From a virus (Duplodnaviria; Heunggongvirae; Uroviricota; Caudoviricetes): a stretch of DNA of 64,000 bases. Where the stretch lies: positions 90,145 through 154,144 of the IMG/VR virus record IMGVR_UViG_3300010401_000032, one strand, 5' to 3'. The notes below the pieces were generated by a model. That model did not search any database and had not been told where the DNA came from. It saw only the letters and a program-made list of their open reading frames with translations. Position 1 is the stretch's first letter, and every line of letters starts with the position of its first letter. Shown piece after piece: positions 270 to 36,385 of the stretch. Position numbers and translations under genes: made by a program.

Positions 270-1289
270 TCAATAAATAAATTCGTCCGCTCGTTTGCTG
301 TATGCCGGGTCCGGGGACTGTAAATGATAATCGTGTACACACATTTTATCTACCAATGTTTCAAAATCACATTCAGACTTCCATCCTAATGTTTTTTGTG
401 CCTTGCTTGAATCTCCTAATAGGATTTCAACGTCTTTTGGACGCATAAAAATAGGGTTAAATTTATAAACCTTATCCTTATCGAGATTAAACCACGTGCA
501 ACACGCTTCAAAGAAACTTGTCACTGAATGGGTCTTACCTGTCGCAATAACAAAATCGTCTGGTGTATCGTTTTGCAACATCATATGCATCGCTTTTACA
601 TAGTCGCCGGCATAACCCCAGTCTCGACTAGCTGTTATATTTCCAAGCTCTATATGCTCTTGAAGGCCCCACTTAATACGTGCAAGACTGGTAGTAATCT
701 TACGGGTGACGAATTCTTCGCCACGCAAAGGACTTTCGTGATTGAAGAGAATACCAACGGTCGCAAACATGTTATATGATCTGCGATATATCTGAGTCAT
801 ATGATGCCCATACATCTTTGATGCCGCGTATGGCGACTCTGGATTCATAGGAGAGTCTTCATTTAGAATAGCAACCTTACCATTAATAATTGGGTTGCCA
901 AACTGTTCGCTGGAGCCGGCCTGATAAAACTTACAGTCTGGTTTAATTTGACGAATTGCTTCTAAACAATTAAGAACGCCGAAACCGGTAATTTTGGAAG
1001 TAGTCTCGGGATATTGCCAAGATAACGCAACGTGAGACTGTGCGGCTAAATTATAGAATTCAGCAGGTTGAAATTTCTTAACGGTATTTTGTATACTTGA
1101 AAGATCCGTTACGTCGCCATCAACCAAGTGAAAGTTGGGACTTCCCATAAGAGTGCGAAGCCTTGAAAGGTTAGAAGTAGAGGTGCGACGGCGAACCCCG
1201 ACAACTCTATAATCCAATGAGAGAAGATGTTTACTTAAGTAGTAGCCGTCCTGGCCACTGATTCCCGTGATGATAACCGTCTTATTCAT
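270..1289 (-). CDS. gmd: GDP-mannose 4,6-dehydratase
   Basis: ITGISGQDGYYL Rossmann motif, YNLAAQSHV, GSSEQFG, SPYAASK (YxxxK), GILFNHESPLRGEEFVTRKIT, RDWGYAGDYV: hallmark Gmd motifs. Confidence 0.96.
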   Translation of the reverse strand: MNKTVIITGISGQDGYYLSKHLLSLDYRVVGVRRRTSTSNLSRLRTLMGSPNFHLVDGDVTDLSSIQNTVKKFQPAEFYNLAAQSHVALSWQYPETTSKITGFGVLNCLEAIRQIKPDCKFYQAGSSEQFGNPIINGKVAILNEDSPMNPESPYAASKMYGHHMTQIYRRSYNMFATVGILFNHESPLRGEEFVTRKITTSLARIKWGLQEHIELGNITASRDWGYAGDYVKAMHMMLQNDTPDDFVIATGKTHSVTSFFEACCTWFNLDKDKVYKFNPIFMRPKDVEILLGDSSKAQKTLGWKSECDFETLVDKMCVHDYHLQSPDPAYSKRADEFIY

Positions 1290-2248
1290 GCTTGATTCCT
1301 ATACCAGTTTATTGTTCTTCTAATTGCTTCCTCAACCGATACCTGCGGTTCCCATTTGAGAACTTCTTTTGCTCTAGATATATCTAATGCTCTACGTGGT
1401 TGGCCATCTGGCTTGGTCGAATCCCACACGATATCAGAATTATAATTACCAATCCTTTTGATCATTTCCGCCAAGCTTTTAATAGTTATTTCTTGACCGC
1501 ACCCTAAGTTAATGGGTTCTGGCGAAACATTTTTTTCTATAGCAATCGCTATAGCCCTAGCACAATCACCCGCGTACAAGAAGTCGCGAGAGGCTGATCC
1601 GGTGCCCCATAAGGTTACAAACGTATTGTATTCGTAACTATCCTCATCTGTTAAACTAAGTTTTTGATCACGTCTAGATTGTTCAAATTTATTAATCAGT
1701 GCGGGTATAACATGTGACTTATCGGCCTCGAAATGATCGTGTTCGCCGACCATATTGGTTGGAATGAGATTAACTACATTAAGACCGTATTGTTTACTAT
1801 ATTCTATTCCAAGCTTCACTAGTGTTCTTTTGGCAATACCATAACCACTATTGGTCATCTCTGGCATGCCATCAAATAGTTCGCTTTCAATAAAGGGAAT
1901 CGTCTTGGGCGTGTGCGGATAGGAGCACGTCGTACCGAGCATAATGAATTTTTTAACCTTTAGGTCTTTGGCAGCCTCAAGAATATTCATGCCCATTTGA
2001 AGATTTTGATAGCCGAGCTTGCCCTGATTATTTTGATTAAATCCTATTCCGCCAACCACGCCCGCAAGATGAATAATAACATCGGGACCCCAAGCATAAT
2101 ATCGTGCTTCAATACCACACGGAGTATCATTTAATAAATCTAATGCACGAGAATTTGGAACATATAATTCGTGGTCGGTATTCTCTTCTAAATACCTTAC
2201 GAGATGATGACCTAAAAATCCGTAGCCGCCCGTTATAAGAATTTTCAT
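1286..2248 (-). CDS. fcl: GDP-L-fucose synthase (GDP-4-keto-6-deoxymannose epimerase/reductase)
   Basis: TGGYGFLG, IHLAGVVGGI..N, LGTTCSYP (catalytic Cys), YGIAK, SHVIPALI (catalytic His), WGTGSASRDFLY, KPDGQPRR; adjacent to gmd. Confidence 0.93.
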   Translation of the reverse strand: MKILITGGYGFLGHHLVRYLEENTDHELYVPNSRALDLLNDTPCGIEARYYAWGPDVIIHLAGVVGGIGFNQNNQGKLGYQNLQMGMNILEAAKDLKVKKFIMLGTTCSYPHTPKTIPFIESELFDGMPEMTNSGYGIAKRTLVKLGIEYSKQYGLNVVNLIPTNMVGEHDHFEADKSHVIPALINKFEQSRRDQKLSLTDEDSYEYNTFVTLWGTGSASRDFLYAGDCARAIAIAIEKNVSPEPINLGCGQEITIKSLAEMIKRIGNYNSDIVWDSTKPDGQPRRALDISRAKEVLKWEPQVSVEEAIRRTINWYRNQA

Positions 2249-2760
2249 TCCTTTAATCCAATTCCTCTTACGATGCAGGGTCGCTTGGAATGTTGGCCGC
2301 CAACACCCTCATACATCAATACTTTAAAGCCAGCATCCTCAAGAAGCTGTCTAATACATTCTGGCGTGAAACGCCAATAGTCTCCCGGATAGTTATGTAT
2401 CTCGAAATCAAATACGGTTGTTAAATAAAATAGCCCTCCGGGCTTTGTAACGCGGAAGGCTTCTTTGATAACTTCTCGTGGCCAGTCAACATGTTCTAAG
2501 CAATCAGTGCTTATAATAACATGAAAGCTGTTATCGGTAAACGGCATCTGCTTGGCGTCAGATACTACGTCAACGCCGGGGCCATTTTGCATATCGAGCC
2601 CAACATACTCTAGCACCTGCGGTGCTATGGTCTTGCGACAAATTATATCTTCTTGTCCAGGGGCAATCCAACTGCCTATTTCTAGCACTCGCATGTCTTT
2701 ATTGAATGGCATTCTTTGAGCGGCTTCATGCTCAATCCATCCTCTATTATGCACATCCAT
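2245..2760 (-). CDS. Class I SAM-dependent methyltransferase
   Basis: VLEIGS motif I, YVGLD..GPGVD, MPFTDNSFHVIIS..CLEHV, KPGG, YPGDYWRFTP; typical of glycan-cluster methyltransferases. Confidence 0.85.
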   Translation of the reverse strand: MDVHNRGWIEHEAAQRMPFNKDMRVLEIGSWIAPGQEDIICRKTIAPQVLEYVGLDMQNGPGVDVVSDAKQMPFTDNSFHVIISTDCLEHVDWPREVIKEAFRVTKPGGLFYLTTVFDFEIHNYPGDYWRFTPECIRQLLEDAGFKVLMYEGVGGQHSKRPCIVRGIGLKE

Positions 2761-3334
2761 TAAGAAACTCCTCTACGGTAATTACGTTCATGATCTCGTC
2801 GCGATGACGCTTAAAAATGTCCCATGTCCATCCTTCAACTGGGGCAATAAACTTCTGTTCCCACGTAGTGTCATCGCGTCTTATGACCCCACAGCCCCAA
2901 TCAGTATCTATCGTAAACATCTTTAAATCATGTCGCCACGATCTAAGACTTGCGAACGCCTTCCAACAGTCGCCAGTCCAAGGCTGACCGGAAAGCCCCT
3001 CTCTGAGTTGATGCCACTCCTCCGTAGGAAGCATATCGTGACATACTATTATGCCCTGTTCATTAAGAAATGTCAATGAATTAGTGATATCTTTTTGAAC
3101 TTGTTCTGCTAAATGTAGACCATCAATAAAGATTAAGTCATATTTTTGCTTACAATGATTAGCGAAGAACTCATCGGAGGTCATAGTATAATCGCCGCAC
3201 CCATTGGGGTCTACGCCGTGTTTAATAGGCACGTTAATCTGATTAAGAGTTTCGCGACCCAAGACCCCTATCTCAAGATAAGATTTAAAGTCGTATTTAT
3301 CGATAAGATATTTAATTATATCATAACGTTGCAT
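2747..3334 (-). CDS. Class I SAM-dependent methyltransferase (Methyltransf_24-like)
   Basis: YLEIGV, GVDP, YDLIFIDGLH..EQV..DI, GIIVCHD, WTGDCWKA. Confidence 0.85.
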   Translation of the reverse strand: MQRYDIIKYLIDKYDFKSYLEIGVLGRETLNQINVPIKHGVDPNGCGDYTMTSDEFFANHCKQKYDLIFIDGLHLAEQVQKDITNSLTFLNEQGIIVCHDMLPTEEWHQLREGLSGQPWTGDCWKAFASLRSWRHDLKMFTIDTDWGCGVIRRDDTTWEQKFIAPVEGWTWDIFKRHRDEIMNVITVEEFLNGCA

Positions 3335-4164
3335 TAGTAGCCTACATCCTGTAAGTAAGGAAGATAAATATTAGATTCGTGAAAGTGTCGCCAATTCTGG
3401 TAAACGTTATTATTTAAAGCAGCAGGATTATACAATGAATTCCAATCCACGTAATACCATTTCTGATTCCACATAGATCTTAATGTATTATGGTCGGCTT
3501 GAAGATAGCCATCATAGGCGTGGTGGATAGATCCATTTTTGGAAGTCATATTATGATAGTGGCGACAACGAACGTCGTGACTCACGGCCGCGTAACCTCC
3601 ATGAATATATGCTCTCAATGCGAAGTCAAGATTTTCGTATTGTGCTTTCCATCGTTCGTCAAAGTAGCCAATTTTATCGAACGTTGTCTTCGGCCAAAAT
3701 TGTATGGTTAGTTCCTGGGCAATACATTTAGTTATTCCATTGTCAGCATAAGATTCTTTTTGATATTCTATATCAGATATATCGGACATTGGACAGACTT
3801 GATATATATCTTGATTATTATCTAGGCATTTTAGTAATTCATCATCTAATCCATGTTCAAATAAAGTATCAGAGGTAACAAGCGACACAAACTTGCCGCG
3901 TGCCACGTGAGCTAGTAGATTAATACCGCGACTTATGCCTATATTATTACGCAGTGTAATTGATTGAAAACCAAATTTTCTAGCGAGTGATTCCGTGAGC
4001 ACGCTTTGTTTTTCTGGGCCACCCTGATCTATCAAATATACTTCGGACTTTAACGTGCTATTCTTATGAAGATATAGAGATTCAACGCAGTTCTTATAAT
4101 GCTCCTCAGCAACGGGATCATTACCAGGATTATAATTTAATACGCCGAATGTAATGTCTATCAT
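3334..4164 (-). CDS. Glycosyltransferase, GT-A fold (GT2-like)
   Basis: VYLIDQG, NIGISRGIN, TSD (degenerate DxD), IGYFDERW..YENLDFALR. Confidence 0.75.
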   Translation of the reverse strand: MIDITFGVLNYNPGNDPVAEEHYKNCVESLYLHKNSTLKSEVYLIDQGGPEKQSVLTESLARKFGFQSITLRNNIGISRGINLLAHVARGKFVSLVTSDTLFEHGLDDELLKCLDNNQDIYQVCPMSDISDIEYQKESYADNGITKCIAQELTIQFWPKTTFDKIGYFDERWKAQYENLDFALRAYIHGGYAAVSHDVRCRHYHNMTSKNGSIHHAYDGYLQADHNTLRSMWNQKWYYVDWNSLYNPAALNNNVYQNWRHFHESNIYLPYLQDVGY

Positions 4165-4793
4165 TTTATTAACCTGACTATCGTATCATTCGCCGCCGCT
4201 CCTGGCGTGCGAATATACTCAAGTTGAATTTGACAATTTAAAGTGCTTAAAAATGAAAAGAGCTTACTGTGCGAGTACGTATTCCAAAAGTAGGTGCAGC
4301 CGTTCTCGTCTGGCTCCGACTCTTTAATAATGTCCTCGGGAGAATCCGATAGATCTACGAAGAAAACTAGGATAGCTTCTTTTGCTGCGACCCTGAATAC
4401 TTCTTTAATCGCCGTCTCGTAGCCCTCGCCAAGATGTTCTAAAATATGTCTGGCGATAACTACGTCGAACGCATTGTCTATAAATGGTATTTCTTGGATG
4501 CGACCCTCTCGTAAAGAAATGCTGTCGCCATACAGGCTGCGAGCATGAGCCAAAAAGTTCTTTGTTCGATCTAGTCCCGTGTATTTGCAGCGTGCTCCAA
4601 AATTTCTAAACACTTCATAGTTGACGCAAGTGCCACATGCAACATCCAATACTGTAGTATTAGGATCATTGAAGCCATGAATTAAAGCAGCAAGTCTTTG
4701 GCGACCTAAGTTATCTGTACCGGTTCTGTGATTACGCAGAAAGGAAGCTATGTGCTCCGGAGTAAAAAAGTCGTGATTATTTATTTCTGGCAT
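4161..4793 (-). CDS. Class I SAM-dependent methyltransferase
   Basis: VLDVACGT motif I, YTGLD, IPFIDNAFDVVIARHILEHL. Confidence 0.85.
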   Translation of the reverse strand: MPEINNHDFFTPEHIASFLRNHRTGTDNLGRQRLAALIHGFNDPNTTVLDVACGTCVNYEVFRNFGARCKYTGLDRTKNFLAHARSLYGDSISLREGRIQEIPFIDNAFDVVIARHILEHLGEGYETAIKEVFRVAAKEAILVFFVDLSDSPEDIIKESEPDENGCTYFWNTYSHSKLFSFLSTLNCQIQLEYIRTPGAAANDTIVRLIK

Positions 4794-5332
4794 GTGACGT
4801 GCATTTCCAAATTAGATCTATCTACAAATGCTTTTGGTATACCATCTAAAAATTCAATATTTTGAAATCCCACTAATTTTAATAGCTTATTAATAACGCT
4901 CTTGTCTGCTATTAATTGATGTTGGCCTGCTGAACATAACCAGTCAGAGTAATTCGCGAATGGTCCATTTGCACCATCGGCTCTAGCCCATTGAGGAAAA
5001 TTATAATAAAGCCAAACAATCTTTTCAAAGTCTGGTAGCTTTAGCTCAAGCTTGCCGCCCGGCTTTAGGACTCTTCGCCATTCGTTCAATGCATCAGTAG
5101 CAGTCTTAGGATTGAGTGGATTAGAGAGATGAGGTTCGTATGCATTTCCAGCCCTAAAATGTTCTAGTATATGCGATGCATAAATCTCATCGACGCTATT
5201 GTCTTCAAATGGAAGTGCTGATACGTCGGCCTTTAAATCGGCAGATGGATGATCAAAGTCTACGTTAATATAGCCGGGCATATTGTCGCCATGACTGGCA
5301 AGATTAAGTTTAATAAACGTCGCCATTTTCAA
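4781..5332 (-). CDS. Small SAM-dependent methyltransferase
   Basis: KLNLASH..GYINVD (variant of KLNLGCG), LPFEDNSVDEIYASHILEH, EWRRVLKPGG. Start may be the second Met (MATFIK). Confidence 0.8.
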   Translation of the reverse strand: MKMATFIKLNLASHGDNMPGYINVDFDHPSADLKADVSALPFEDNSVDEIYASHILEHFRAGNAYEPHLSNPLNPKTATDALNEWRRVLKPGGKLELKLPDFEKIVWLYYNFPQWARADGANGPFANYSDWLCSAGQHQLIADKSVINKLLKLVGFQNIEFLDGIPKAFVDRSNLEMHVTCQK

Positions 5333-5567
5333 TCACTTTCTTATCCTCATAGGTAGCAACCGCACGCCTGTAGAATTCTAATTTAGCACATTCTAATGTG
5401 CCGATAATAGTATTATAACCTATATAATTTTCTTCTGTATTTCTCAAATATTTAAGACACAGACTTGTAATCACATAGTTGAGATCGCCAGGACTCTCGA
5501 CGTGCTGAAATACGTCCTGAATATATGGATCGACATCTTTGCGTAATTTTTGTTTAATATAGGGCAT
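5310..5567 (-). CDS. Conserved small phage protein (DUF6899-like)
   Basis: MPYI..., GDLNY.IT, IIGTLECAKLEFYRR....YEDKK..ENGDV pattern, recognised from memory as common in phages. Confidence 0.7.
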   Translation of the reverse strand: MPYIKQKLRKDVDPYIQDVFQHVESPGDLNYVITSLCLKYLRNTEENYIGYNTIIGTLECAKLEFYRRAVATYEDKKVIENGDVY

Positions 5568-6532
5568 TATATAATTCCTACTTCCTTAAAAATATGTTCA
5601 AATCTATTCGACCATTGATGGTCTTTGATCATGCGAGCATGACCGGCGGCAGCGATTTTTTCTCGCTCGTCAGAATTAGCGAGATAATACTTAGTTTTAT
5701 CAATTAATTCCTGTACCGTTCTGGCAATAACAATTTCTTTATCTTCAATAAAGTATGAATCTAGATCGTCTGCCGGCGTACTGATTTGAAGACCCTGCAC
5801 CTGCGGAATCTCAAAGTGCCTTCCTTTAATTTGAGGCATTGTTCCATGATGCCATGGATTAGATAGATTAAGATTAACCTTGGATGTGTTGAATACGTCT
5901 ATGATTTCTTTGAAGTCTGTCTTGTATCCGTGCCAGTTTTTATACCCGTCCCAATAATTACCGAAGAGGTCTATCGATATCCCCGCTTCCATCATGGCAT
6001 CTATGACTTCGCTTCTAAGGAATTTGCCGTTTGGCATCTGTCCGTGCTTTTGTCCAACGAAGGATGCATCATACTTATACGATTCCCTATTGGGCTTGTA
6101 AAGCGGAGAACCGGCCCACTGAGACTTAATGACCTTCATTCCGCTTTGTTGATACCATGGAATGGTTGCTGAGTGCGTAGTCACGAAATGAGACACGCGA
6201 TCTTTACGAGGAAGAATCCAGTGCTGGAAACGCCATGAGCTATCGCAGTCCCATTGAATGACAGGAACGCCCGCCCTTAGAGCCAGCTTCGCAATACCTT
6301 CCGGTAAATCTAATGTTTCATTGAAAGCTACGTTAAAGATTGCGTCATAATTAAAATCAGCAATAAACATATCAAGAGATCGTGGATCTGCGTCTGGGTA
6401 ATAGTAACAATCTTCTAGAGAATTTTGTTTACAATATTCGGCAAACCCCGCTTCAATATTCATGTGCTCATACGAAAAGCCTTCTTCCGGCTTTCCGTAA
6501 TTATATAGTAAGCCTACGTATAATATTTTCAT
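5567..6532 (-). CDS. Glycosyltransferase, CgeB/Glyco_trans_1_2-like (GT-B)
   Basis: QWDCD, YDASFVG, SKVNLNLS, QIKGRHFEIP..G, YYL.N..ERE.IA.AGH.R..KDH.W..R C-terminal signature. Confidence 0.8.
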   Translation of the reverse strand: MKILYVGLLYNYGKPEEGFSYEHMNIEAGFAEYCKQNSLEDCYYYPDADPRSLDMFIADFNYDAIFNVAFNETLDLPEGIAKLALRAGVPVIQWDCDSSWRFQHWILPRKDRVSHFVTTHSATIPWYQQSGMKVIKSQWAGSPLYKPNRESYKYDASFVGQKHGQMPNGKFLRSEVIDAMMEAGISIDLFGNYWDGYKNWHGYKTDFKEIIDVFNTSKVNLNLSNPWHHGTMPQIKGRHFEIPQVQGLQISTPADDLDSYFIEDKEIVIARTVQELIDKTKYYLANSDEREKIAAAGHARMIKDHQWSNRFEHIFKEVGII

Positions 6533-6768
6533 GATACTTGTGTTAAATAATCAATCTTCCAGGATATACATTCTGTCAGAATGCCGTCTTCTTCCGCGAT
6601 CCATTCAGACGCTAACATTTCAATACGTCTATTGGCAAAATCCGCTGCCTTAGCCCTGGTTTCAAAGGGGCCAAAAAATACTGTTTCATCTTTCCATGCT
6701 GTATTATCAGAACGATCTTTTAGATTTTCCTCTATAAGAACATACATATCAACTTGTTTCTTTGTCAT
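6529..6768 (-). CDS. Hypothetical protein
   Basis: 79 aa; ATGA-type overlaps with both neighbours. Confidence 0.65.
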   Translation of the reverse strand: MTKKQVDMYVLIEENLKDRSDNTAWKDETVFFGPFETRAKAADFANRRIEMLASEWIAEEDGILTECISWKIDYLTQVS

Positions 6769-7436
6769 CTCGGCACCGATGTTCCTAGTGAGTAGATGTA
6801 TAGGCGTTCAGGTACTTTCATAAAGATAAATCCGGCCGCTGCGGCACGTTGCCACAGATCCCAATCTTCGCGGCCCAATAGAGCCTTGTCCGTTCTGTAC
6901 ATATTTAAAGTCTCAAGAGCGGAACGGCGAATCATCATACTGCCGTGACATAAGATGTTCTCCTGTGATAGCCTGTTTACGATTTCATCGTGCTTGGAAT
7001 ATTGAAGTACTGAAAAGCAGTTTGGATGCATAACGCCGTCTACTAGATCCCATGCGTTCGTCCCGCAAAAGTCAACCTTGGTATTACGCAATAAGCAGTT
7101 TCTTTGTATTTCAAGCTTACAATCCATCCACTGATCGTCCGCGTCTAGATAGGCGATCCAATTTGTGGTGCAGTGCGAAATGCCATAATTTTTGGCTGCT
7201 GCCAATCCTTGCTTACGCGGACGTTCAAGTACCCGAAGATTGAGAACGTCCTTATAATGATCGACTAGTGCCCGCGTGTTCTCCCAGCATTCGTCCAGTA
7301 CCACTACTGTCTCAAATTCACAGTATGTTTGCCGAGTGAGAGATTCTAATGCTCTTTGCAAAAGCATGTCGTGCTCATGGTCGGGACTATGGGCACAGAC
7401 TAGAACACTAATTGTATCAGACTCTTTCATTTTCAA
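6765..7436 (-). CDS. Glycosyltransferase family 2
   Basis: RALESL..QT, GLAAAKNYG, IAYLDADDQW (DxD), HGSMMIRR, EDWDLW.R. Confidence 0.9.
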   Translation of the reverse strand: MKMKESDTISVLVCAHSPDHEHDMLLQRALESLTRQTYCEFETVVVLDECWENTRALVDHYKDVLNLRVLERPRKQGLAAAKNYGISHCTTNWIAYLDADDQWMDCKLEIQRNCLLRNTKVDFCGTNAWDLVDGVMHPNCFSVLQYSKHDEIVNRLSQENILCHGSMMIRRSALETLNMYRTDKALLGREDWDLWQRAAAAGFIFMKVPERLYIYSLGTSVPR

Positions 7437-7441
7437 TTTCT

Positions 7442-8362
7442 TTAATTAGGACATACATATTCGGGAAATACATTACTGAGAATTTCATGACAGCGACGGG
7501 TATAAGTGTGTCTTCGTAAAAATTTCTCTTGAAAGCCAAATCGAACCGGCCGCCATCTTGAGTCAAGTTCTTTGATGAGATTGAACAACTCTTCTTCGTT
7601 TCTATATTCTAAGCAAGGAATACCTAAGTCGTGTACTCCATCGTCTTGTGGCGTAATCAAATGGGATCCAGCCGCGATTACTTCGAAGGGCCGCATGGGA
7701 ATAAGACCGGCACCGCCGCCAGCAATATCATTTATAACATAATGAGATCGCATTAGTGTATCTACATATTCTTCTCTGAATGCATTTGTGACGTATTGTA
7801 CGTTGGCGTTTGGAACGAGAGACTGAATAGATTCATATAATTGTCTGCGTTCTGGACGATCTGATCCTATAATTAAGAAGTCTATATCTTTAGTCACCGG
7901 ATAAACAATATCATGCTTTAAAAAGACATATTGTCCACTATCAAAGAATATGGGACGAGCATGCTTGTCGTAATCGGCTGCGTAGGGCAGATAGATTTCG
8001 TGATCTTTGACAAAGTTTTTATTGGCAACGAAGTTGAATTCACAGCCGAGATAATTAGTTTCAAGTAACCATCTTCTAGGATATAATGATAAATCAAACC
8101 ACCAAGATGCTCTGGCGACCACATTGATATTTTTCAGTTCCTCATAAAATCTATCGCCATCGCCGCATTCCATTTGAAGATATAGATCATAAGTACCAGA
8201 CAAAGAAGCAAGAGTATTGCCTTCAATCATTTCATTGGTTTCGTAATAGTTGCCATACGGAAACACCGTATGTCCTAATTCGCGAAATGCTTTGACGACA
8301 AAATCCCCGGTCGCCCAACCGCGACTTTGAGGTATGCCCCTGTAACTAACAATAATTCTCAT
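7442..8362 (-). CDS. Glycosyltransferase, CgeB/Glyco_trans_1_2-like
   Basis: YLPYAAD, DIDFLIIGS, RPFEVIAAG, RRHTY..RC C-terminal signature. Confidence 0.7.
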   Translation of the reverse strand: MRIIVSYRGIPQSRGWATGDFVVKAFRELGHTVFPYGNYYETNEMIEGNTLASLSGTYDLYLQMECGDGDRFYEELKNINVVARASWWFDLSLYPRRWLLETNYLGCEFNFVANKNFVKDHEIYLPYAADYDKHARPIFFDSGQYVFLKHDIVYPVTKDIDFLIIGSDRPERRQLYESIQSLVPNANVQYVTNAFREEYVDTLMRSHYVINDIAGGGAGLIPMRPFEVIAAGSHLITPQDDGVHDLGIPCLEYRNEEELFNLIKELDSRWRPVRFGFQEKFLRRHTYTRRCHEILSNVFPEYVCPN

Positions 8363-8544: not shown

Positions 8545-8545
8545 A

Positions 8546-10904: not shown

Positions 10905-11161
10905 GATACTCCGGCATCAGTTGTCCAAACTGCTCCAAATAATACATAAACCAAGCCATAGTATCCAGTATAACGAGCCATATGTCTTACGTATCGATCT
11001 GTCGCACTCTGAAAATCGTTACAATTCTTATTCAATTCCTGTATAGTTCTTGGTTCGCGATTTTCAATCTTAATGATATCAAGCCACAACTTTTTACGTC
11101 TATTATTTATCGCTCTTAAGTGTTGAGAACGACGTTTGATTTTACGATAAAACCCAATCAT
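10901..11161 (-). CDS. Hypothetical basic protein
   Basis: 86 aa, overlaps neighbours, short hydrophobic C-terminal stretch. Confidence 0.55.
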   Translation of the reverse strand: MIGFYRKIKRRSQHLRAINNRRKKLWLDIIKIENREPRTIQELNKNCNDFQSATDRYVRHMARYTGYYGLVYVLFGAVWTTDAGVS

Positions 11162-12290
11162 AGCACTTCTCTAATTGTTTGTTTACAATACTGGCTTCGA
11201 AATATCTCATGGCTCTTCGCCGGGCAGTACGTCCAAAATAGTCGCGTAGTCTCACGCGATCTGTTTCGTCTTCATTGGCAAACTCTTCGTTAAGAACTAA
11301 TTGCTCAAGAATATCTCTGTATGCAACCCAATCGCCCACTGGCACAACAAAGCCGGCGTCGCCAATAATCTCTGATTGACCGTTATAGATTCCGCTTTCG
11401 TGAGATACTACTGGTAGTCCATGCATCATGGCCTCTTGTATATTACAAGGACAACACTCTCCATCATGACGTGCGTGAGCATAAATGTCAAGTCCCATAT
11501 AGAACTTAGATAAAGCTTGATCGCTTATAATGGGTTCGCCGAATCTTATGTTTTGTATTCCAAGCTTACTGGCACAATCGATCCAGTTCTGACAAGGATT
11601 AATTACTATATACCAAACATTAGGATATCTCTTCTCTACCTCCGCGAAAGCTTTTAATGAGATAGGGTCAAAGTTATCTGGACGGCCAACGCGACCAATG
11701 AGAATTGCATCGTGCGGTATCTTAAACTTGTTCAGTAATTCTTCTCGACATAAATCCTTGTTATCAATAGTCATATCTAGAACTGGTTGTTCTATTGGAT
11801 TATAGATTACTGGACCGACTTCGTTGCCACTAGAAACGGCTCGCTCTTTAATATAATCTGATATATAAATATGTAGGTCTATTTGACTCTCTGGCGTCGT
11901 ATCGTTATAACCAAAGATGTTAGTTTCGACCCACTTGGCTCTTGGAGCCATGTAACGGAATGCTGGCCACTCGTTGTAACCGCTTCTGTGAACATGCACA
12001 ATCTGCGGATCGATTTGCTTTAAAACATCAAATAGATTGTCCTTCTCTGGAAGGTACGGAGATTGGCGACCCTTCTTGCCGGGTTCCCACTGATAGGGAA
12101 TCACCCGATCATTTCCAAGCCAAGAGCGTACAACGTCAAGGCGTTCGTTTGCTGGATCATTATCTCTATAGACAATATATGGATCAAACCTGTCGCTTCG
12201 CGACAGGTACTTGGCGAATAGTTGTGCCGTGCGGTCTGTGCCGCTATAACCAACCGTCTTGGAATGATGTACTACTCGTATTTTGTTCAT
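11142..12290 (-). CDS. Glycosyltransferase family 4 (GT-B)
   Basis: GYSGTDRT N-terminal motif, IGRVGR, DIYAH...GECCPCNIQEAMMHGLPVV (EX7E-like), GFVVP. Confidence 0.88.
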   Translation of the reverse strand: MNKIRVVHHSKTVGYSGTDRTAQLFAKYLSRSDRFDPYIVYRDNDPANERLDVVRSWLGNDRVIPYQWEPGKKGRQSPYLPEKDNLFDVLKQIDPQIVHVHRSGYNEWPAFRYMAPRAKWVETNIFGYNDTTPESQIDLHIYISDYIKERAVSSGNEVGPVIYNPIEQPVLDMTIDNKDLCREELLNKFKIPHDAILIGRVGRPDNFDPISLKAFAEVEKRYPNVWYIVINPCQNWIDCASKLGIQNIRFGEPIISDQALSKFYMGLDIYAHARHDGECCPCNIQEAMMHGLPVVSHESGIYNGQSEIIGDAGFVVPVGDWVAYRDILEQLVLNEEFANEDETDRVRLRDYFGRTARRRAMRYFEASIVNKQLEKCYDWVLS

Positions 12291-12508
12291 ATTTCTGGTA
12301 AGGCTTCTACTTCTTCGTCCGTCATCTCTATAACTTCAATAGTAAAAGAATCACCCACGTAGGGATCATCTTCGTACCAATCGCGGATACAGCTAAATAG
12401 ACCGTCTAAGGTATCGGCATTTAATACGCTCCAATGATCGCCATCTACTAATTCTGGACTGATCCTAAAATACTTAGCCATTGATAACCTCTTCGTAAAT
12501 CTTTTCAA
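12287..12508 (-). CDS. Small acidic hypothetical protein
   Basis: Sits between two GT4 paralogues; real start probably MAKYF (~12481). Confidence 0.6.
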   Translation of the reverse strand: MKRFTKRLSMAKYFRISPELVDGDHWSVLNADTLDGLFSCIRDWYEDDPYVGDSFTIEVIEMTDEEVEALPEI

Positions 12509-13580
12509 GTTTCTTGACGCAAACGCTTGCTTCGAATTCGGCTTCCGCTTTATGTCTGCCAGCCTCGCCCATTCTGAATCTCATGCCCTGATCATCAATC
12601 AACATCTTTAAAGCTTCTGCATATTCATCGGGATGATTATTAACCACCCAACCTGTCTCGGCAGTATTCACTAAAGTAGTTTGTGCTTGAAATACGCCCA
12701 TTCCTGGAACGCTTGCTCTGGCATAATGCGTAATCACGGGTTTACCATGGATCATAGCCTCGGCAATATTAACGCCGAATGTTTCGCCATCCGCTCTAGC
12801 ATGAGTATATATATCTAAACTATTATAGAAAGTGCTTAAAATTAAAGGATTAGTTGTGGGTTCGACAACGTGAAATGGTATTTCGTACTTGACTAAATCG
12901 TCGATCATGTTACTCGGCGGTGCAACTACGATGAAACGAATATCGTACCCCTGTAGTCGAAGTAGACGAACGGCGTCAACGCTGACCGAATTATATATAC
13001 CATTGTCTGGTCGCCCGCATCTCCCTACTACAGTTGCCCCTTCTTCGTGCCATTGGCTAGCAATTGGAAGAACTGAATCCGCGTATGGCATTTCAACTGG
13101 ATTATTAACAAAGTCAAATCTTGGGTTTGCACCCCTCAAATACATTCTAAGCGAATGATTCATAAGCCATTCACTCATAAAGAGATCGCGGTCTATCGCA
13201 GAATTAGGATCTATAAAGCCAAATACATTAGTAATAACAAAACGAGGAACGGTGATATGTATATTGGGACGCGGGAATTCCGCGTAGCCCGATTGATATA
13301 CGTGCAAAATATCTGGCTTAAAATTATCTATTACCTGCTGTAGTTCGTCGCCATTAACAGAACTTCTATTTTCCCAAGAATTAACTTCGAAAAGCTTGCC
13401 GCCAGAAACACGGGCGGCTTTTTGAAATTCTTCAAGCCTTGGATGTTCGCCGGTCTTTTCAAAGACCACGGCTACTTCAAACTTATCGCTATTCGCGTGT
13501 TCGAAAAATAACTGACACGTCTTCTCCGTACCGCCCAAACCAAGATGACGAAGATAATGCAGAACTTTAATTTTTCTCAT
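12474..13580 (-). CDS. Glycosyltransferase family 4 (GT-B)
   Basis: GLGGTEKT, VGRCGR, GETFGVNIAEAMIHGKPVI (EX7E), MGEAGR; paralogue of 11142-12290. Confidence 0.9.
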   Translation of the reverse strand: MRKIKVLHYLRHLGLGGTEKTCQLFFEHANSDKFEVAVVFEKTGEHPRLEEFQKAARVSGGKLFEVNSWENRSSVNGDELQQVIDNFKPDILHVYQSGYAEFPRPNIHITVPRFVITNVFGFIDPNSAIDRDLFMSEWLMNHSLRMYLRGANPRFDFVNNPVEMPYADSVLPIASQWHEEGATVVGRCGRPDNGIYNSVSVDAVRLLRLQGYDIRFIVVAPPSNMIDDLVKYEIPFHVVEPTTNPLILSTFYNSLDIYTHARADGETFGVNIAEAMIHGKPVITHYARASVPGMGVFQAQTTLVNTAETGWVVNNHPDEYAEALKMLIDDQGMRFRMGEAGRHKAEAEFEASVCVKKLEKIYEEVING

Positions 13581-13899
13581 GAAGTTGTCTTCTAAGATAG
13601 CTAACTTCTGCCTCTAGTTCACGAATGCGTTGCTTAGAGGCTCGTGCATGAGCGGATAATATACAAGGATTTATATGTTCGCCAATTGATTGTGTATCAA
13701 CTTCATGATCAAGAGCTTTGGCACGAGATTCCCACTCTAAAGCTTTCTGTTTCTCTAGATGAATCTGAAATTCTAAATGATAGATGACGCTCTCTTGACT
13801 GGCAACTTGCTTGTGAAGATCGGTAACAAGTTCCAATAACTCGTTAGCAACATAACGATACCATTTATATCGCCAACGTGTAAGTTTCTTATAGGCCAC
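13567..13899 (-). CDS. Hypothetical coiled-coil protein
   Basis: 110 aa with heptad-like E/K/L pattern; overlaps neighbours. Confidence 0.6.
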   Translation of the reverse strand: MAYKKLTRWRYKWYRYVANELLELVTDLHKQVASQESVIYHLEFQIHLEKQKALEWESRAKALDHEVDTQSIGEHINPCILSAHARASKQRIRELEAEVSYLRRQLHEKN

Positions 13900-14704
13900 T
13901 AATCCACTCTTCGCGTTGCGGTAGGTTGTTGAAGTCTCTGAATTCTTTAGCGTGCTTCAAATGACTGTCAAAGTTATGACCAAAAAACTCGGAAATGGCA
14001 GCGTATGTTTCGTAGTTATTGGCTCGTTTGTTACTATTTTCAATGGAATCGGGTCTTTGTGTATAGACCGTAAGCTGCTCCGGAATCGATAGACCGTGAT
14101 AGCCGTTGCTCATAAAGTATAACCAGAGCCAATAATCGAACGCTGACTTGTATTCGGCGGCTCTCTTATCCATTAGCTGCCAATCAAGATCGCGTTTAAA
14201 TTCTGTATTGTTGAGCCACGCAACCTGTGGTCCGCCCCAGCATTCTCGTGTCATAAGCTCAAAGTCGAACTTAGGTTTTAAGCCACGTCCAATCAGTTGT
14301 TTCTTTTCATTAATGACCGTCATGCCGCCATAACAGAATCCTATTTTGGGACCGTTATATAGTGGACTCTGAATGAACTTTAAATACTTGTGTACAATTT
14401 CTGTGGTGCGAGGATCGTGAAAATCATCGGTATTCGAGTTCATAACAAACTCGCCCTTGGCACATCTCCATGCACGCAACCAAGACGCTCCGTACGGCTC
14501 GCGTTTCGGCCAATAGACATAATTGACGCGACTATCTATCTCTGCCCATTTCTGGGCTATCGGTCCATCAGCACCGGGCGAATCGGGATTAACAACAACG
14601 ATTTCAAAATCTGGATCGGTTTGTCTTTCAAGCAAGTCAGCAATATGCTCATCCAAGAAATGAGCAGAATCATAGGTTGATACAAGATAAGAAAGCTTAG
14701 GCAT
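13889..14704 (-). CDS. Glycosyltransferase family 2
   Basis: LVSTY, Q..DFEIVVVN..S, AKGEFVMNSNTDD (DxD), DYWLWL. Confidence 0.85.
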   Translation of the reverse strand: MPKLSYLVSTYDSAHFLDEHIADLLERQTDPDFEIVVVNPDSPGADGPIAQKWAEIDSRVNYVYWPKREPYGASWLRAWRCAKGEFVMNSNTDDFHDPRTTEIVHKYLKFIQSPLYNGPKIGFCYGGMTVINEKKQLIGRGLKPKFDFELMTRECWGGPQVAWLNNTEFKRDLDWQLMDKRAAEYKSAFDYWLWLYFMSNGYHGLSIPEQLTVYTQRPDSIENSNKRANNYETYAAISEFFGHNFDSHLKHAKEFRDFNNLPQREEWISGL

Positions 14705-15713
14705 TTACGACCATTCCGTTATGATAATGACTCATGTGCGGTTGAGACTGTCGGGACATGCAGAGCCAAATGTTTCCCCATTCTTCATTTTTCAAAACCT
14801 TAGAATAGAATTTATCGTCTTCCCAACCAAGACTGGCCGCCGTAGGATTTTCACAATGTATAAATCTAGGATGCTGTTTCATGATTTCTGGATGCTCACC
14901 GCTAAAAGCTAAAACTGGCTCGGTATCTGCGAACCAATCTTTGACTTTCTGATCAAACTTTTTATTTGCGGCCCCATGGCCCGCAAGTTCTTTTTCGTAG
15001 TACTCTTGCTTAGTTTTCATTATTTCATTCATATTCGAACGTGCATATCCATAATGATATATGAAAAAATTATTCAACATAACTCTACGATGTTGATAGT
15101 GCGGTGAAAAATAAGTACAGTGTCCAGCCGGATCAGTTGCAACAGGATGACTATTATATTTCATGCCTCGAACGTACTTAAATATACGTTGATGCTGAGG
15201 TTGCCATTCAGGACCCGGCACAGCTACGTGCCAAAAATCTCTATAGAAATGTAAAAAATTAGGGACAAACTCGCATGCCGCAGGATTAAGATCTATAGCT
15301 TTTCGTAAGCGACGAATATCCTCAGGGCGATAAAATTCATCTGCGTCATTAATAATGATCCAATCGCCAGGAAGAGAAATATCCAGAAATGTTTGTTTCA
15401 TTTCCTCAAGATTCTTCCATGGTTTCCTAATAGATATCAATGTTAGTTTTTGATCTGGATCGTGATTAGCTTTAAAATCATTGATGATTTCGATTGTACG
15501 ATCTGTCGAATGTCCATCTGGCGTTGAATTAGGACGATTCTGCACCGCCCCTTCGATCACTATAATCCTATCTACTTCATTATAGATGGACGCAAGCGTT
15601 AAGCCAATGAATTCTTCTTCGTTGTGGGCTTGAATACACTGAACTAGACGGGCAGGTTTATTAACCCGTTCGGCTATACACTTCATTTGGCTTTCGTAAT
15701 AGATTTGATTCAT
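14697..15713 (-). CDS. Glycosyltransferase family 2-like
   Basis: AHNEEEFI..TL.SIY, STDRT..I, WIIINDADEF (DxDE), IYHYGYAR. Confidence 0.82.
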   Translation of the reverse strand: MNQIYYESQMKCIAERVNKPARLVQCIQAHNEEEFIGLTLASIYNEVDRIIVIEGAVQNRPNSTPDGHSTDRTIEIINDFKANHDPDQKLTLISIRKPWKNLEEMKQTFLDISLPGDWIIINDADEFYRPEDIRRLRKAIDLNPAACEFVPNFLHFYRDFWHVAVPGPEWQPQHQRIFKYVRGMKYNSHPVATDPAGHCTYFSPHYQHRRVMLNNFFIYHYGYARSNMNEIMKTKQEYYEKELAGHGAANKKFDQKVKDWFADTEPVLAFSGEHPEIMKQHPRFIHCENPTAASLGWEDDKFYSKVLKNEEWGNIWLCMSRQSQPHMSHYHNGMVVNA

Positions 15714-16969
15714 AGTGATTCCTCAATGCTCGCCGCTACGGCACCTTCTTTTTTATCGTCAAAACGTACTACGCCAGTAGCTTTCCATGATTCATGAGCA
15801 GAGATCAACTGTTCTGTTACTTTTGATGCAATAGTTCTATAATCAAACTTGTTACCAACCATCATGGCATTTTGTTGTTTTTGTAATACGGCTTGCCACT
15901 CTTTTAGATTAGCCTCGTTTAACTGACCTTCGGCAGCACCTTTCTTTAAAAGGTAGAATCTCTGCATAACCATTGACATCTCGGCGACGGAAGGTTCAAA
16001 ACACTGTTCTAAGCCAGTGAATAATCCTGGATCTCCGTGGGGCATGTCGTAAAAGAAAGACGCACAGCCGTTATAAATTAATGCGTTTTGCGTGCTAACG
16101 AAATCTTGCAAGCCGGTTTTATCATGTGAAATAACCGTCTTACCGTGGGCCAGGGCATCGAATACCGGTATGCCCCAACCTTCTGATCTACTTGAACAAA
16201 CGTACGCATCACCTCTAGCATGTAAGCTTTGAATATCTTCGTCTGACATAGTTCCTATCAATGGAAGAACCGGCGGGAACTTGTTTGTCGGTATACGGGT
16301 TTTCATTTTGACATTTTCGATATAGCTCTTAACGTGAGTTAAATCGTTTTGTCTGTCCTGCATACTAATGTAGGTCTTTAAAACTAAGAGAACGTCGTCG
16401 GGCACACTAGAGAATGCCGCGTAATATGCCCGCAGCAAAAGATCTATTCCCTTTTTCGTGCTAAGTTGACAAATATTATAGAATATTGTTCTATTACCAG
16501 CATTCTTAATTTCAAATGGCTGGTACTTCTTTTTGTAAATATCATTATCGCATGGCGGTGCCGCAACAAGAATGGGGCGTCTTATGCCAGATCTCAATAA
16601 AGTTTCAGCATTAAAACGTGACGGCACAATGAGAAAGTCAAAACTCTGTGCTGTTTGTGCCCAAGACGGCTGTAATCTGTCCGTTTCAAAGAATGTATAC
16701 AGTCCATTAACGACACCTGGAATTGGAACCGCTTCCACATTACAGGTGGTCATTTGAGTTACAATATCAACATTCAAAAGATCTTTTTGTAGATGCGGAG
16801 CCATCCATTCCGGTATATCAAAAGATTGTCCGTTGTCAAGACGATCGTACTTTAATGGACGAGCTACCACGTCTAATCTTTCGTCTTGCTTTAGCATGCG
16901 TAAAAAATTACGCGATACTGTTGCAAATCCGGAGAAATCAAATAACGGACCTGTAAATAGAAGTTTCAT
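15710..16969 (-). CDS. Glycosyltransferase family 4 (GT-B)
   Basis: SGFATVSR, FFETD, IVPSRFN, KKGIDLLL.AY, SRSEGWGIPVFDALAHGK. Confidence 0.88.
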   Translation of the reverse strand: MKLLFTGPLFDFSGFATVSRNFLRMLKQDERLDVVARPLKYDRLDNGQSFDIPEWMAPHLQKDLLNVDIVTQMTTCNVEAVPIPGVVNGLYTFFETDRLQPSWAQTAQSFDFLIVPSRFNAETLLRSGIRRPILVAAPPCDNDIYKKKYQPFEIKNAGNRTIFYNICQLSTKKGIDLLLRAYYAAFSSVPDDVLLVLKTYISMQDRQNDLTHVKSYIENVKMKTRIPTNKFPPVLPLIGTMSDEDIQSLHARGDAYVCSSRSEGWGIPVFDALAHGKTVISHDKTGLQDFVSTQNALIYNGCASFFYDMPHGDPGLFTGLEQCFEPSVAEMSMVMQRFYLLKKGAAEGQLNEANLKEWQAVLQKQQNAMMVGNKFDYRTIASKVTEQLISAHESWKATGVVRFDDKKEGAVAASIEESL

Positions 16970-16970
16970 A

Positions 16971-18773
16971 TTAGACGAACTCTTGTTGATTCTGTGCTTG
17001 TGATTGTTGTATACCGGCCGCTTGTTTTCTCATTTGATCTCTAATCTTGGAGCCGTCCGACTGTTGATTACCGATGGCAACAAACTGGGCCATAAGCTGC
17101 TCTCGCGTGATCCCCATGCTAAGATGCTCAACCCAAGTTTTTGCACCATTTGGATCTACAGCGGGATATTTCAAAACGTTCAAATATAGCCAATCTACAT
17201 ATTCTTCATTATTAAGATTCGGCGGAATTGGAAGTGCTGCAACTGTATTCACTTCGGAGATTGGACTATCCCACGTCTGAGAACGATCGAGCGGCTGAAC
17301 ATTATCCAATACATATTCCCATTGTTGGAATAATTTATCCCAGTCATAGTTATCGACAACGCATTGATAGGCTTCCTTTGACAGTTCTGAAAGCTTCTCT
17401 TTATTAGAGATCATTTCAAACATCTTGTCTGCCAAATCTTCGATGTCTGGGTGAGCACGCTTGCAACTTGTTTCTGCTTCGTAGTAATAACGACCGACAT
17501 CAATAACATCGCCACCCTTATTGCAGGTGTAGTTATCTTTCGTAATGTCCATTTCTTTAAAGTGATCGTAGTTTGGATAACGGCCCTTCTCACGCATGGC
17601 GGTGTAATCTGTAGCCAGCGTTGGCACTCCGCAAGCTTTCGCCTCTTGTATCGGCATACCATCACCTTCGCATATAGAGCATTGAACATATAAATCCATC
17701 ATGCTATACAGCTTTGCCAATGTTTCTCTATCAAAGCCAATGCTGGTACTGGGCGGCGAAGCATCAATCTTATTGCAGTGCGGACAAGGTAACTTAATTC
17801 TACCTTCTTCTATGGGTTTTTTCCACAGATTCATTGCGTATGTAACAGACGGCTCTTTGCACGAATGACAGTGCATAGATTGTAGAATACTACCTCTAAT
17901 GCCCTTATTATAATACGGCATCCAGTCATGTGTTTCAAGACGCATGATGTGTCTAGGATAATCGTAAGAGTGTACGTTATCTGGCCAAGACGAGTGTATG
18001 AGGAGGGTGGCCTTGTCTACAATCTCATTACCCTTATACTTAGCTTTCATACGAGAAAAACCGTCGATAAGATCTGGATAAAGTTTACGAGATTGATTTC
18101 TCATAACAGTACCAATAACTGTTATTTCTTTATTGAGATTCCAGAAGTCTCTTACTTCTTTTTTATCCATTGGCTTGAAAGTACTAAGGTCTACTCCCGG
18201 TCGCATAGGCTTAGGGAATATCTTCATCTTTCTTTTGCCAGTTGGCAACACCTGACTTTGACGACGCAAAGCGTGAACGCCGTAATCAGAATAAGCCAAA
18301 ACTAAGTTGGCATTTTCATAAGTCTCAATCCACTCTTCCGCTTGTGGTTCTGCGTCCACTGTTGGCATAATAATCCATTTAAACCAAGGGCGGAAAGCGT
18401 TTCTCTCTTCGAATTCCAACATCCAAAAATCTCTAATATCAATAACGATATCGGGCTGAAAATCTAATAGAACGGCATTAAGTTTGTATTCGCCGAATTG
18501 GTTTGTCATTTGTCCGCGAGCACGTGGATGGGGACAGTTCTGCCCGAACACGGACGCTTCCTGTTGATTGGTCGGAAGCACACCATAAAATTTCCAACGA
18601 CCATTTATAAATGATTGAACACGAGGATCGTTTTGATGTGCGTAAGATCCTAACTCTGCAATTTCATATTTGCCGGTTGCAGCAAGCCGTGGTAATAATT
18701 CTCTGTAATATGTCGAGAATCCAGTATTAAGGAAGCTAGCTTCACCTATAAACAGAATGCGTTTTTTGCTCAT
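16971..18773 (-). CDS. Glycosyltransferase family 4 with Cys4 insert and DUF4214-like C-terminal module
   Basis: TGFSTY, PGVD...F.P, RNQSRK.YP.L, CEGDGMPIQEAKACGVP (EX7E), YDWD; CHSC...CPHC insert; YVDWLY.NVL...D..G...W...L..G.TR tail. Confidence 0.85.
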   Translation of the reverse strand: MSKKRILFIGEASFLNTGFSTYYRELLPRLAATGKYEIAELGSYAHQNDPRVQSFINGRWKFYGVLPTNQQEASVFGQNCPHPRARGQMTNQFGEYKLNAVLLDFQPDIVIDIRDFWMLEFEERNAFRPWFKWIIMPTVDAEPQAEEWIETYENANLVLAYSDYGVHALRRQSQVLPTGKRKMKIFPKPMRPGVDLSTFKPMDKKEVRDFWNLNKEITVIGTVMRNQSRKLYPDLIDGFSRMKAKYKGNEIVDKATLLIHSSWPDNVHSYDYPRHIMRLETHDWMPYYNKGIRGSILQSMHCHSCKEPSVTYAMNLWKKPIEEGRIKLPCPHCNKIDASPPSTSIGFDRETLAKLYSMMDLYVQCSICEGDGMPIQEAKACGVPTLATDYTAMREKGRYPNYDHFKEMDITKDNYTCNKGGDVIDVGRYYYEAETSCKRAHPDIEDLADKMFEMISNKEKLSELSKEAYQCVVDNYDWDKLFQQWEYVLDNVQPLDRSQTWDSPISEVNTVAALPIPPNLNNEEYVDWLYLNVLKYPAVDPNGAKTWVEHLSMGITREQLMAQFVAIGNQQSDGSKIRDQMRKQAAGIQQSQAQNQQEFV

Positions 18774-36382: not shown

Positions 36383-36385
36383 GTT

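Follow-up and report, generated by a model that had tools for sequence, protein, structure and literature searches.

A core glycosylation gene island in an uncultured tailed phage is a candidate assembly line for virion glycans

We analysed a 64,000-nucleotide stretch of a tailed-phage genome (hereafter the window; bases 90,145-154,144 of the 161,114-bp IMG/VR virus record IMGVR_UViG_3300010401_000032, Caudoviricetes) and find that an island of genes at window positions 270-18773 constitutes a conserved, intact, soluble and phage-owned glycosylation gene set with a fixed inner and a swappable outer part. Among related phages the island is a core syntenic module and not an accessory one, with an exchangeable cassette placed before the gene fcl. 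We consider the chances about even that it is a cytoplasmic assembly line which glycosylates virion proteins, the acceptor being the part of this reading that we infer.

The island is a single minus-strand, overlap-coupled run of 18.5 kb according to the open reading frame (ORF) list and Pfam annotation. It holds gmd, an fcl-type gene, four S-adenosylmethionine (SAM) methyltransferases (MT1-MT4) and 11 glycosyltransferases (GTs), namely four of GT2 type, four of GT4 type, two CgeB-like and one Pfam-blank protein of GT-A fold. A first-pass annotation of the sequence had proposed just such a co-oriented run of about 11 GTs, four methyltransferases, gmd and fcl, and every class was recovered, by Pfam or, for the GT-A protein, by a structure model, always on the minus strand. 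Most junctions within the island are overlaps of 1-35 nt or spacings of 1-5 nt, and no gap exceeds 232 nt (6533-6764). The glycan genes are interspersed with a GMP-reductase/IMPDH-family gene, a HAD-like gene and several small ORFs.

For synteny, about 31 kb was fetched from ten related records; one of these (G013) stands apart with another set of GTs, and the orthologue counts given here refer to the remaining nine clade relatives. In transcription order the run follows a phage sigma factor gene (18770..19375; Sigma70_r2, 36 bits), the upstream anchor, which overlaps GT4d by 4 nt. GT4d (16971..18773) encodes a 600-aa GT4 enzyme with a four-cysteine (Cys4) insert and a C-terminal helical domain that Pfam matches as DUF4214, and forms an ancient pair with the next gene, GT4c (15710..16969; PF00534, 45 bits). 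There follow GT2d (14697..15713; PF00535, 34 bits; orthologues at 60-76% identity), GT2c (13889..14704; PF00535, 54.8 bits; 49-68%), a 110-aa ORF, GT4b (12474..13580; PF00534), a 73-aa ORF and GT4a (11142..12290; PF13692 and PF00534; 43-73%), of which GT4b is a paralogue at 30% identity. Behind an 86-aa ORF lie a small HAD-like protein, a possible phosphatase (10536..10904; weak HAD_SAK_2 and NT5C matches below cut-off; orthologue only in G006), a 58-aa ORF, the eleventh GT, a 221-aa protein recognised by structure model and alignment (9713..10378), and the GMP-reductase/IMPDH-family enzyme (8695..9720; PF00478, 330 bits, with the GMP reductase and IMPDH models both below cut-off). Further small ORFs separate these from GT1_2b, which is CgeB-like (7442..8362; PF13524, 35.8 bits against a cut-off of 25; 34-48% in 9/9 relatives), GT2b (6765..7436; PF00535, 79 bits; present in 7/9), the second CgeB-like gene GT1_2a (5567..6532; PF13524, 90.9 bits against the same cut-off; 48-71% in 9/9) and a DUF6899 protein (5310..5567; PF21840, 99 bits), found among the sampled relatives only in G009. 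The distal end comprises MT4 (4781..5332; Methyltransf_11, 37 bits; some relatives), the conserved MT3 (4161..4793; Methyltransf_11, 63 bits; 46-69% in 9/9), GT2a (3334..4164; a GT2-like gene with a weak PF00535 match of 26.4 bits against a cut-off of 23.3; 42-51% in five relatives), MT2 (2747..3334; Methyltransf_24 type, PF13578, 39.6 bits), MT1 (2245..2760; Methyltransf_11/23/25; only some relatives), the fcl-type gene (1286..2248) and finally gmd (270..1289).

The first-pass annotation had suggested a survey of related genomes, and this survey finds the island's frame throughout the clade. In all nine relatives the order is PolIII-alpha, sigma, GT4d, GT4c, GT2d, GT2c, GT4b, GT4a, GT-A protein, GMP reductase, GT1_2b, GT2b, GT1_2a, MT3, variable cassette, fcl and gmd, with a few members absent or relocated in single genomes. 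The boundaries of the island are the same in these nine genomes, which is not the presence/absence behaviour of an accessory cluster; its span is ~17-26 kb, and its proteins are 34-76% identical to their counterparts, conservation of about the same degree as that of PolIII-alpha (48-70%). Orthologues of fcl occur in 9/9, the pairing of sigma with GT4d is maintained, and a conserved ORF of ~240 aa follows gmd in most of the nine. A wider search found gmd in 13/13 related phage records at 43-71% identity, and a search with the major capsid protein (MCP) found 19 IMG/VR loci at 64-88% identity on contigs of up to 183 kb. What varies is the cassette before fcl, which in the present phage consists of GT2a and three methyltransferases and in relatives contains nucleotidyltransferases, a HAD phosphatase, a PRK-like kinase, TylF/Methyltransf_24 methyltransferases and DUF7796 proteins. 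No orthologue of MT2 was found in the sampled relatives, and in G005 TylF/Methyltransf_24 genes fill the same cassette. To judge from their families, the cassette enzymes would alter sugar activation and decoration, as diversification of an outer glycan needs.

Conservation of the leading genes extends well beyond this clade. Relatives of GT4d form more than 120 clusters at ≥53% identity, all of ~600 aa and on contigs of up to 183 kb; an exhaustive search yields 470 representatives at E ≤ 1e-30, and a profile scan of IMG/VR confirms at least 537 stretches encoding GT4d relatives. Among 60 distant IMG/VR loci, PolIII-alpha lies upstream of GT4d in 59 (33-39% identity) and GT4c follows it in 49, often succeeded by GT2b-, CgeB-, fcl- and gmd-like genes. 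The sigma-GT4d pairing is seen in 11/60 of these loci with a clade-level hidden Markov model, and a Sigma70_r2 gene also overlaps a GT4d homologue of 35% identity. In nearly all of the distant loci (L105-L164) PolIII-alpha is detected as two or three consecutive ORFs, which points to a split gene, or to inteins or introns, in that wider group's polymerase.

GT4d itself is a frequent host of inteins. About one third of its listed representatives are 890-1600 aa long with split alignments, and several relatives carry LAGLIDADG_3, Hint_2 and Intein_splicing domains in precomputed Pfam annotation; those of intein type include P0036, P0041, P0054, P0059, P0095, P0108, P0114 and many more. The places where the alignments break point to three or more insertion sites, near query residues 112-141, 265-276 and 370. 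The intein of G008 (L075:4613-7480) starts with a Cys right after '...VQCSI', within the invariant 'CSICEGDGMPIQEAKACG' EX7E motif. As a rule, inteins settle at conserved sites of indispensable genes, and their presence in a glycosyltransferase, including at an active-site motif, is unusual. The GT4d inteins would be evidence, independent of synteny, that the enzyme is indispensable to the phage. One metagenome contig of the clade at NCBI carries a LAGLIDADG homing-endonuclease-like ORF, standing alone between GT4c and GT2d (L062:13061-13696), and an unannotated 686-aa ORF inserted between GT2d and GT2c.

Alignments with as many as nine orthologues show that catalytic motifs of the island GTs are kept. 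EX7E does not vary in GT4a, GT4b or GT4d; GT2c has an invariant N-S-N-x-D-D and GT2d an invariant IND-x-DE motif; and RDCDSR is invariant in eight orthologues of the GT-A protein, which is the gene that had earlier been described as "RDxDS GT-like" and whose model has a GT-A fold. The conserved EX7D motif of GT4c rules out a catalytically dead partner of the GtfB kind. Because these motifs are kept in orthologues, the genes are working ones, and the possibility raised with the first-pass annotation that most GTs are degenerate pseudogenes falls away. The GT-A protein model (pLDDT 81) is matched in Foldseek by PcManGT (a mannosyltransferase), glycogenin, PBCV-1 A64R and Skp1 AgtA (a galactosyltransferase), at E ~1e-5 and a TM-score of ~0.55. 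The GT4d model (pLDDT 87) is a generic retaining GT-B fold whose matches include sucrose-phosphate synthase, MshA, BshA, GlgM and the methylmannose-polysaccharide mannosyltransferase, and the four cysteines of its insert (C302, C305, C330 and C333) are invariant in 27 sequences.

For the sugar supply, the PF16363 match of Gmd (367 bits) covers positions 1-332 of 332, and TIGR01472, the GDP-mannose 4,6-dehydratase model, is its best model, full length at 349 bits and below the equivalog cut-off of 415. The Fcl-type protein, a GDP-4-keto-6-deoxymannose 3,5-epimerase/4-reductase and probable GDP-L-fucose synthase, has E. coli GDP-fucose synthetase as its best PDB match (1e6u, E 1.6e-48), and its NF047922 score of 229 bits is below the cut-off of 500. 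Aligned to 1e6u, it has retained counterparts of S107 (as Thr), C109, Y136, K140 and H179, which we take, from the E. coli enzyme, to be the short-chain dehydrogenase/reductase triad and the Cys/His pair for 3,5-epimerisation. A GDP-L-fucose pathway, as proposed in the first-pass annotation, is therefore likely on the grounds of best match and kept residues, and the sub-cut-off scores of both enzymes leave the exact sugar unproven. The GMP-reductase/IMPDH gene is possibly linked to guanine-nucleotide supply for the GDP-sugars. It keeps its position within the island across the clade, and the versions in G010 and G012 are longer (421 and 610 aa; L063/L064 and L073) at 32-34% identity.

A Kyte-Doolittle scan finds no transmembrane-like segment in any island protein and no protein with three or more such segments in the complete 161-kb genome, and therefore no Wzx, Wzy, WaaL or polyprenyl-phosphate/phosphoglycosyl transferase is encoded. 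More broadly, the complete genome encodes no initiating transferase, flippase, ABC exporter, polymerase or ligase, for which host supply is possible. What had been claimed for the window, namely GTs free of transmembrane helices and the lack of a flippase, Wzy or undecaprenyl-phosphate transferase, thus holds for the whole genome. All 11 island GTs are acidic (isoelectric points of 5.4-6.4), which lends weak support to soluble acceptors. On the side of DNA modification, the genome has no match to the ThyA-family pyrimidine hydroxymethylases (PF00303; the control was positive in 10/14 genomes) or to C5 DNA methylases (PF00145), and its Tet/JBP match (PF12851) reaches only 11.8 bits, which is under the cut-off, and contains an internal stop; no positive for this family came from the control genomes either. 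ThyX is encoded and is consistent with ordinary dTMP. From this gene content, a route to a hydroxylated DNA base is judged absent from the genome.

Two further GT genes lie outside the island, bringing the whole-genome total of GT-like genes to 13, and neither encodes a transmembrane-like segment. A third CgeB-like GT is seen at its length of ~308 aa once the record is circularised, since it spans the terminal repeat junction (genome 160552-161114 plus the record start). It has a Glyco_trans_1_2 match of 92.4 bits (cut-off 25) at genome 160552-160986, its C-terminal half being L007:6408-6842 on the minus strand; it adjoins TerL at the head of the structural block and is found in 12/12 clade relatives at 58-71% identity. 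The other is a free-standing 201-aa GT2 (PF00535, 50.7 bits) at genome 68529-69134 (L003:18385-18990, plus strand), in the plus-strand half and far from the island.

Taken together, these features suggest the following scheme. Gmd and the Fcl-type enzyme would convert host GDP-mannose to a GDP-6-deoxyhexose, most likely GDP-L-fucose. The eleven soluble GTs would then add sugars stepwise, with GT4d and GT4c, GT2d, GT2c, GT4b, GT4a, the GT-A protein, GT2b and the CgeB-like enzymes all taking part, and the four SAM methyltransferases would O-methylate the glycan. One or more virion proteins would be glycosylated in the cytoplasm, before or during assembly, and the product would have a conserved inner glycan and lineage-specific outer decorations, in analogy with chlorovirus capsid glycans and, on a small scale, with those on the capsids and tail tubes of mycobacteriophages. 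If the run is co-transcribed and translationally coupled with the phage sigma gene, the enzymes would appear just ahead of late protein synthesis. We favour a virion acceptor because core synteny, phylogenetic depth and inteins mark an indispensable trait of the lineage, because lysogeny genes, export machinery and a hydroxylated-base route are all lacking, and because a CgeB-like GT sits with packaging and structural genes. The core status, the GT4d inteins, the lack of an integrase and the lack of a hydroxylated-base route would favour a phage-intrinsic target of some kind, without naming it. The earlier proposal of a cytoplasmic fucose- and O-methyl-containing glycan line on virion proteins accordingly stands for the phage genome, the soluble enzymes and the missing export machinery, and outruns the evidence at the acceptor. 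More tentatively, and at somewhat less than even chances, virion glycosylation may be ancestral and obligatory in a very large and wholly uncultured group of 100-240-kb PolIII-alpha phages (the at least 537 IMG/VR stretches noted above), in which sigma-coupled GT4d, with its zinc finger and DUF4214 domain, and GT4c would lay down a conserved inner glycan, lineage cassettes would add fucose, methyl groups and other sugars, and the intein would mark GT4d as indispensable.

Several observations weigh against a virion acceptor. The glycan, its acceptor and the timing of expression are predictions from the genes, and the island lies in a block of replication and nucleotide-metabolism genes, not among the head or tail genes. 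There is no Ser/Thr-rich tail on the MCP (window 58380-59417), and no clear acceptor tract was seen in any virion protein. The fold matches of GT4d and the GT-A protein are generic and do not identify an acceptor. Because the peripheral GTs of lipid-linked O-antigen and exopolysaccharide (EPS) pathways likewise have no transmembrane helices, the absence of such helices here does not discriminate between acceptors, and the host could provide a primer, a flippase and a ligase.

These last points bear most directly on remodelling of the host envelope, in which the soluble GTs, working on the membrane's inner face, would extend an undecaprenyl- or wall-linked intermediate primed by the host, and the host would export the glycan, possibly blocking superinfection, keeping progeny from being trapped on debris or draining the lipid carrier. 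We regard this as rather unlikely, though it is a serious contender and the most credible of the alternatives. It is the long-standing interpretation of like clusters in P-SSM2, S-SCSM1 and S-SCSM2R, and GT2, GT4, gmd, fcl and sugar methyltransferases are the classes found in O-antigen/EPS loci, where GTs without transmembrane helices are normal. The best NCBIfam matches of GT2b and GT2c, weak as they are, are EpsE, TuaG and WcaA, thus EPS, teichuronic-acid and colanic-acid enzymes, and this too counts against a virion target. So does the report that the DUF4214 domain of the secreted protein Psh binds cell-surface O-antigen (bioRxiv 10.64898/2026.09.02.748959), a precedent that is ambiguous for this phage. 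Against envelope remodelling, an initiating transferase, flippase, polymerase and ligase are all missing from the complete genome, as is any integrase or resolvase that would provide a setting for lysogenic seroconversion; the lead GT bears inteins and the GTs are all acidic. Moreover, the module is core and syntenic over a very broad group, whereas host-specific acceptors should vary and so produce an accessory pattern of the kind seen between P-SSM2 and P-SSM4.

A different cytoplasmic product is improbable in our estimation. It might be a methylated polysaccharide or glycoconjugate, either free or bound to a primer, along the lines of the mycobacterial polymethylated polysaccharides, or the target might be host or non-structural proteins glycosylated during takeover. 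The enzymes are all soluble and acidic, several GT4 enzymes stand alongside several O-methyltransferases, the GT4d fold matches include enzymes with small-molecule or soluble acceptors, and the island is grouped with early/middle replication and nucleotide genes. On the other hand, those fold matches are generic for GT4 enzymes, 11 GTs with a swappable cassette suggest a surface structure under diversifying pressure and not an internal metabolite, and we know of no phage precedent for a cytoplasmic methylated glycan product, which counts against it. Hypermodification of phage DNA, with the GTs glycosylating a modified base against restriction as in T-even and TET-linked systems, would agree with the position of the island directly after the replicative polymerase and beside nucleotide-metabolism genes, with the GT-B fold that T4 DNA glucosyltransferases have, and with the Cys4 insert of GT4d. 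We nevertheless think it very improbable, given that no ThyA-family hydroxymethylase, C5 methylase or Tet/JBP protein scores above cut-off, that the ThyX present fits ordinary dTMP, that the GTs are acidic, and that 11 GTs, four methyltransferases and a deoxyhexose pathway go far beyond any known DNA glycan.

Composition of the virion proteins was also considered. The Ser-Gly dipeptide is 2-3x over the expectation from composition in tail-, baseplate- and fibre-like proteins (window 30152-45027 and 53432-58281; L002:9419-11366), with 38 observed against 18.9 expected in a 1641-aa LamG/PKD protein and zero in the MCP; this excess may be a trait of beta-rich fibre proteins rather than a sequon. 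A 434-aa Ser/Gly/Thr-rich protein (genome 79563-80867; L002:9419-10723, minus strand) has a weak match to the BclA C-terminal domain (21 bits, below cut-off). Its gene is at the minus-strand block's far end, beyond ThyX and the ribonucleotide reductase in the downstream direction. It is probably a fibre-like protein set apart from the main tail module. Most virion proteins are left nameless by Pfam and PHROGs.

The source record has terminal repeats of 123 bp, is scored as 100% complete and carries the phage hallmark genes for TerL, the tape-measure protein and the MCP. Upstream of the island lie sigma, PolIII-alpha (19612..22917, minus strand; PHP, DNA_pol3_alpha and finger domains), a context anchor outside the glycan line, then ClpP, a PD-(D/E)XK nuclease, primase, DnaB and RecA, and beyond them the tail and head genes; downstream lie ThyX, a class II ribonucleotide reductase and a FAD oxidoreductase. 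The flanks are therefore the replication and virion genes that the first-pass annotation had placed there. GC content is 0.40-0.43 and flat over island and flanks, the island's value equalling that of the genome, and therefore the island is no recent compositional import and is a long-term resident. No tyrosine integrase or serine recombinase/resolvase was found in the complete genome, which fits a virulent phage without lysogeny genes.

A sigma-70-like promoter (TTGACG, 16 nt, TG-AATAAT) occurs on the minus strand at window 19382-19409 and ends 6 nt before the sigma ATG, a leaderless layout like that of early genes elsewhere in the same genome. On this motif, host RNA polymerase may transcribe sigma and perhaps also the GT run that follows. 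A scan of the island for sigma-70 promoters and terminators gave 67 hits compared with 55.7 ± 7.9 in shuffled sequence, and thus no excess.

Soil and rhizosphere metagenome runs contain DNA of this phage, and no RNA run is listed for it. No orthologue was found in a cultured phage: the first 20 kb had no megablast match among 50,697 phage records, and tblastn against phage records gave remote matches only, at best 25% identity to Bacillus phage G for the MCP and 21-23% to cyanophages S-EIVl and S-CBS4 for GT4d. A pattern scan with gmd found no close cellular homologue. Only 59/250 ORFs are preceded by a Shine-Dalgarno-like core, which hints at a host with weak use of this signal. Phage contigs of the group have been binned in metagenome-assembled genomes (MAGs) labelled Hydrogenophaga, Balneolaceae, Promethearchaeota and a gammaproteobacterium (L165-L168), and the contig in the Hydrogenophaga-labelled MAG, at 157,945 bp, is about a whole phage genome. 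Because the labels disagree, they are probably binning artefacts and not evidence of the host.

If the virion is the acceptor, a major lineage of phages from soils and other habitats would have a glycan coat as a fixed, inherited particle trait, when such coats have so far seemed peculiar to a few actinophages. This would bear on host recognition, on shielding from recognition by hosts or predators and on particle stability in soil, as well as on the annotation of phage "auxiliary metabolic" sugar genes, which are by default read as lipopolysaccharide (LPS) or cell-wall modification. The GT4d/GT4c pair beside sigma offers a simple marker for finding such phages. Were the trait also ancestral, bacterial viruses would have a counterpart to chlorovirus capsid glycans, in which a conserved core carries variable decoration.

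Among the closest known systems is that of chlorovirus PBCV-1, in which GMD, GMER, A064R, A111/114R and others build the capsid glycans, the soluble GTs are made before capsid synthesis, and the glycan has a conserved core with virus-specific decorations (PMC5408694, PMC7826918). Both systems have a virus-encoded GMD and epimerase/reductase, sugar methylation and mostly soluble GTs without signal peptides, and the core-plus-decoration glycan is mirrored here at gene level by conserved GTs and a variable cassette. PBCV-1 differs in being a nucleocytoplasmic large DNA virus (NCLDV) with an algal, eukaryotic host and in having six scattered GT genes where the phage has one operon, and its glycans are proven by structure determination, whereas the phage island is known from its genes. 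A64R and the GT-A protein share a fold (TM-score ~0.5, 16% identity) with no sequence-level orthology shown. The fibril-glycosylation clusters of Megavirinae, which combine rare-sugar synthesis and GT genes with clade-specific content (PMC10117803), are likewise clustered viral sugar and GT genes; they belong to amoebal giant viruses and use other sugars and enzymes.

Within tailed phages, close parallels are the "LPS" or "cell-wall synthesis and modification" clusters of T4-like cyanomyoviruses: P-SSM2 has 24 LPS-type cluster genes, which are absent from its relative P-SSM4 (PMC1079782), S-SCSM1 has gmd, fcl, fucosyltransferases and GTs (PMC9602691), and S-SCSM2R has 13 GTs (PMC12801897). The first-pass annotation's description of "NCLDV-scale glycosylation" as a novelty in a tailed phage was therefore overstated. 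These clusters resemble the soil-phage island in joining soluble GTs to nucleotide-sugar enzymes, including gmd and fcl, in comparable number, but they are accessory where the island is core in the sampled clade, and they belong to a different lineage, as the identity of only 21-23% between GT4d and its matches in S-EIVl and S-CBS4 indicates. "Moraphages" have four core GT families and are a different lineage of >200 kb (PMC12619734). According to the summary of Freeman et al. 2023 in that paper, virion O-glycosylation by phage-encoded cytoplasmic GTs in mycobacteriophages Che8, Corndog and Myrna is the only experimentally shown case in tailed phages; as summarised there, it involves one to three GTs and no sugar-nucleotide pathway, and the glycans sit on the C-termini of capsid and tail-tube subunits, whereas the soil-phage MCP has no Ser/Thr-rich C-terminal tail. 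The spore crust of B. subtilis provides a cellular parallel: there CgeB reportedly attaches sugar directly to the crust protein CgeA in the mother-cell cytoplasm, with weak activity in vitro and as a preliminary result (PMC13577073). The phage has three CgeB-like genes, and in both cases a soluble GT would act on a particle surface without a lipid carrier or flippase, but the crust belongs to a cellular sporulation system and only the domain family is in common. What is distinct in the island described here is its core status, its anchoring to PolIII-alpha and sigma, its deeply conserved lead pair, and a lead enzyme that is a frequent host of inteins.

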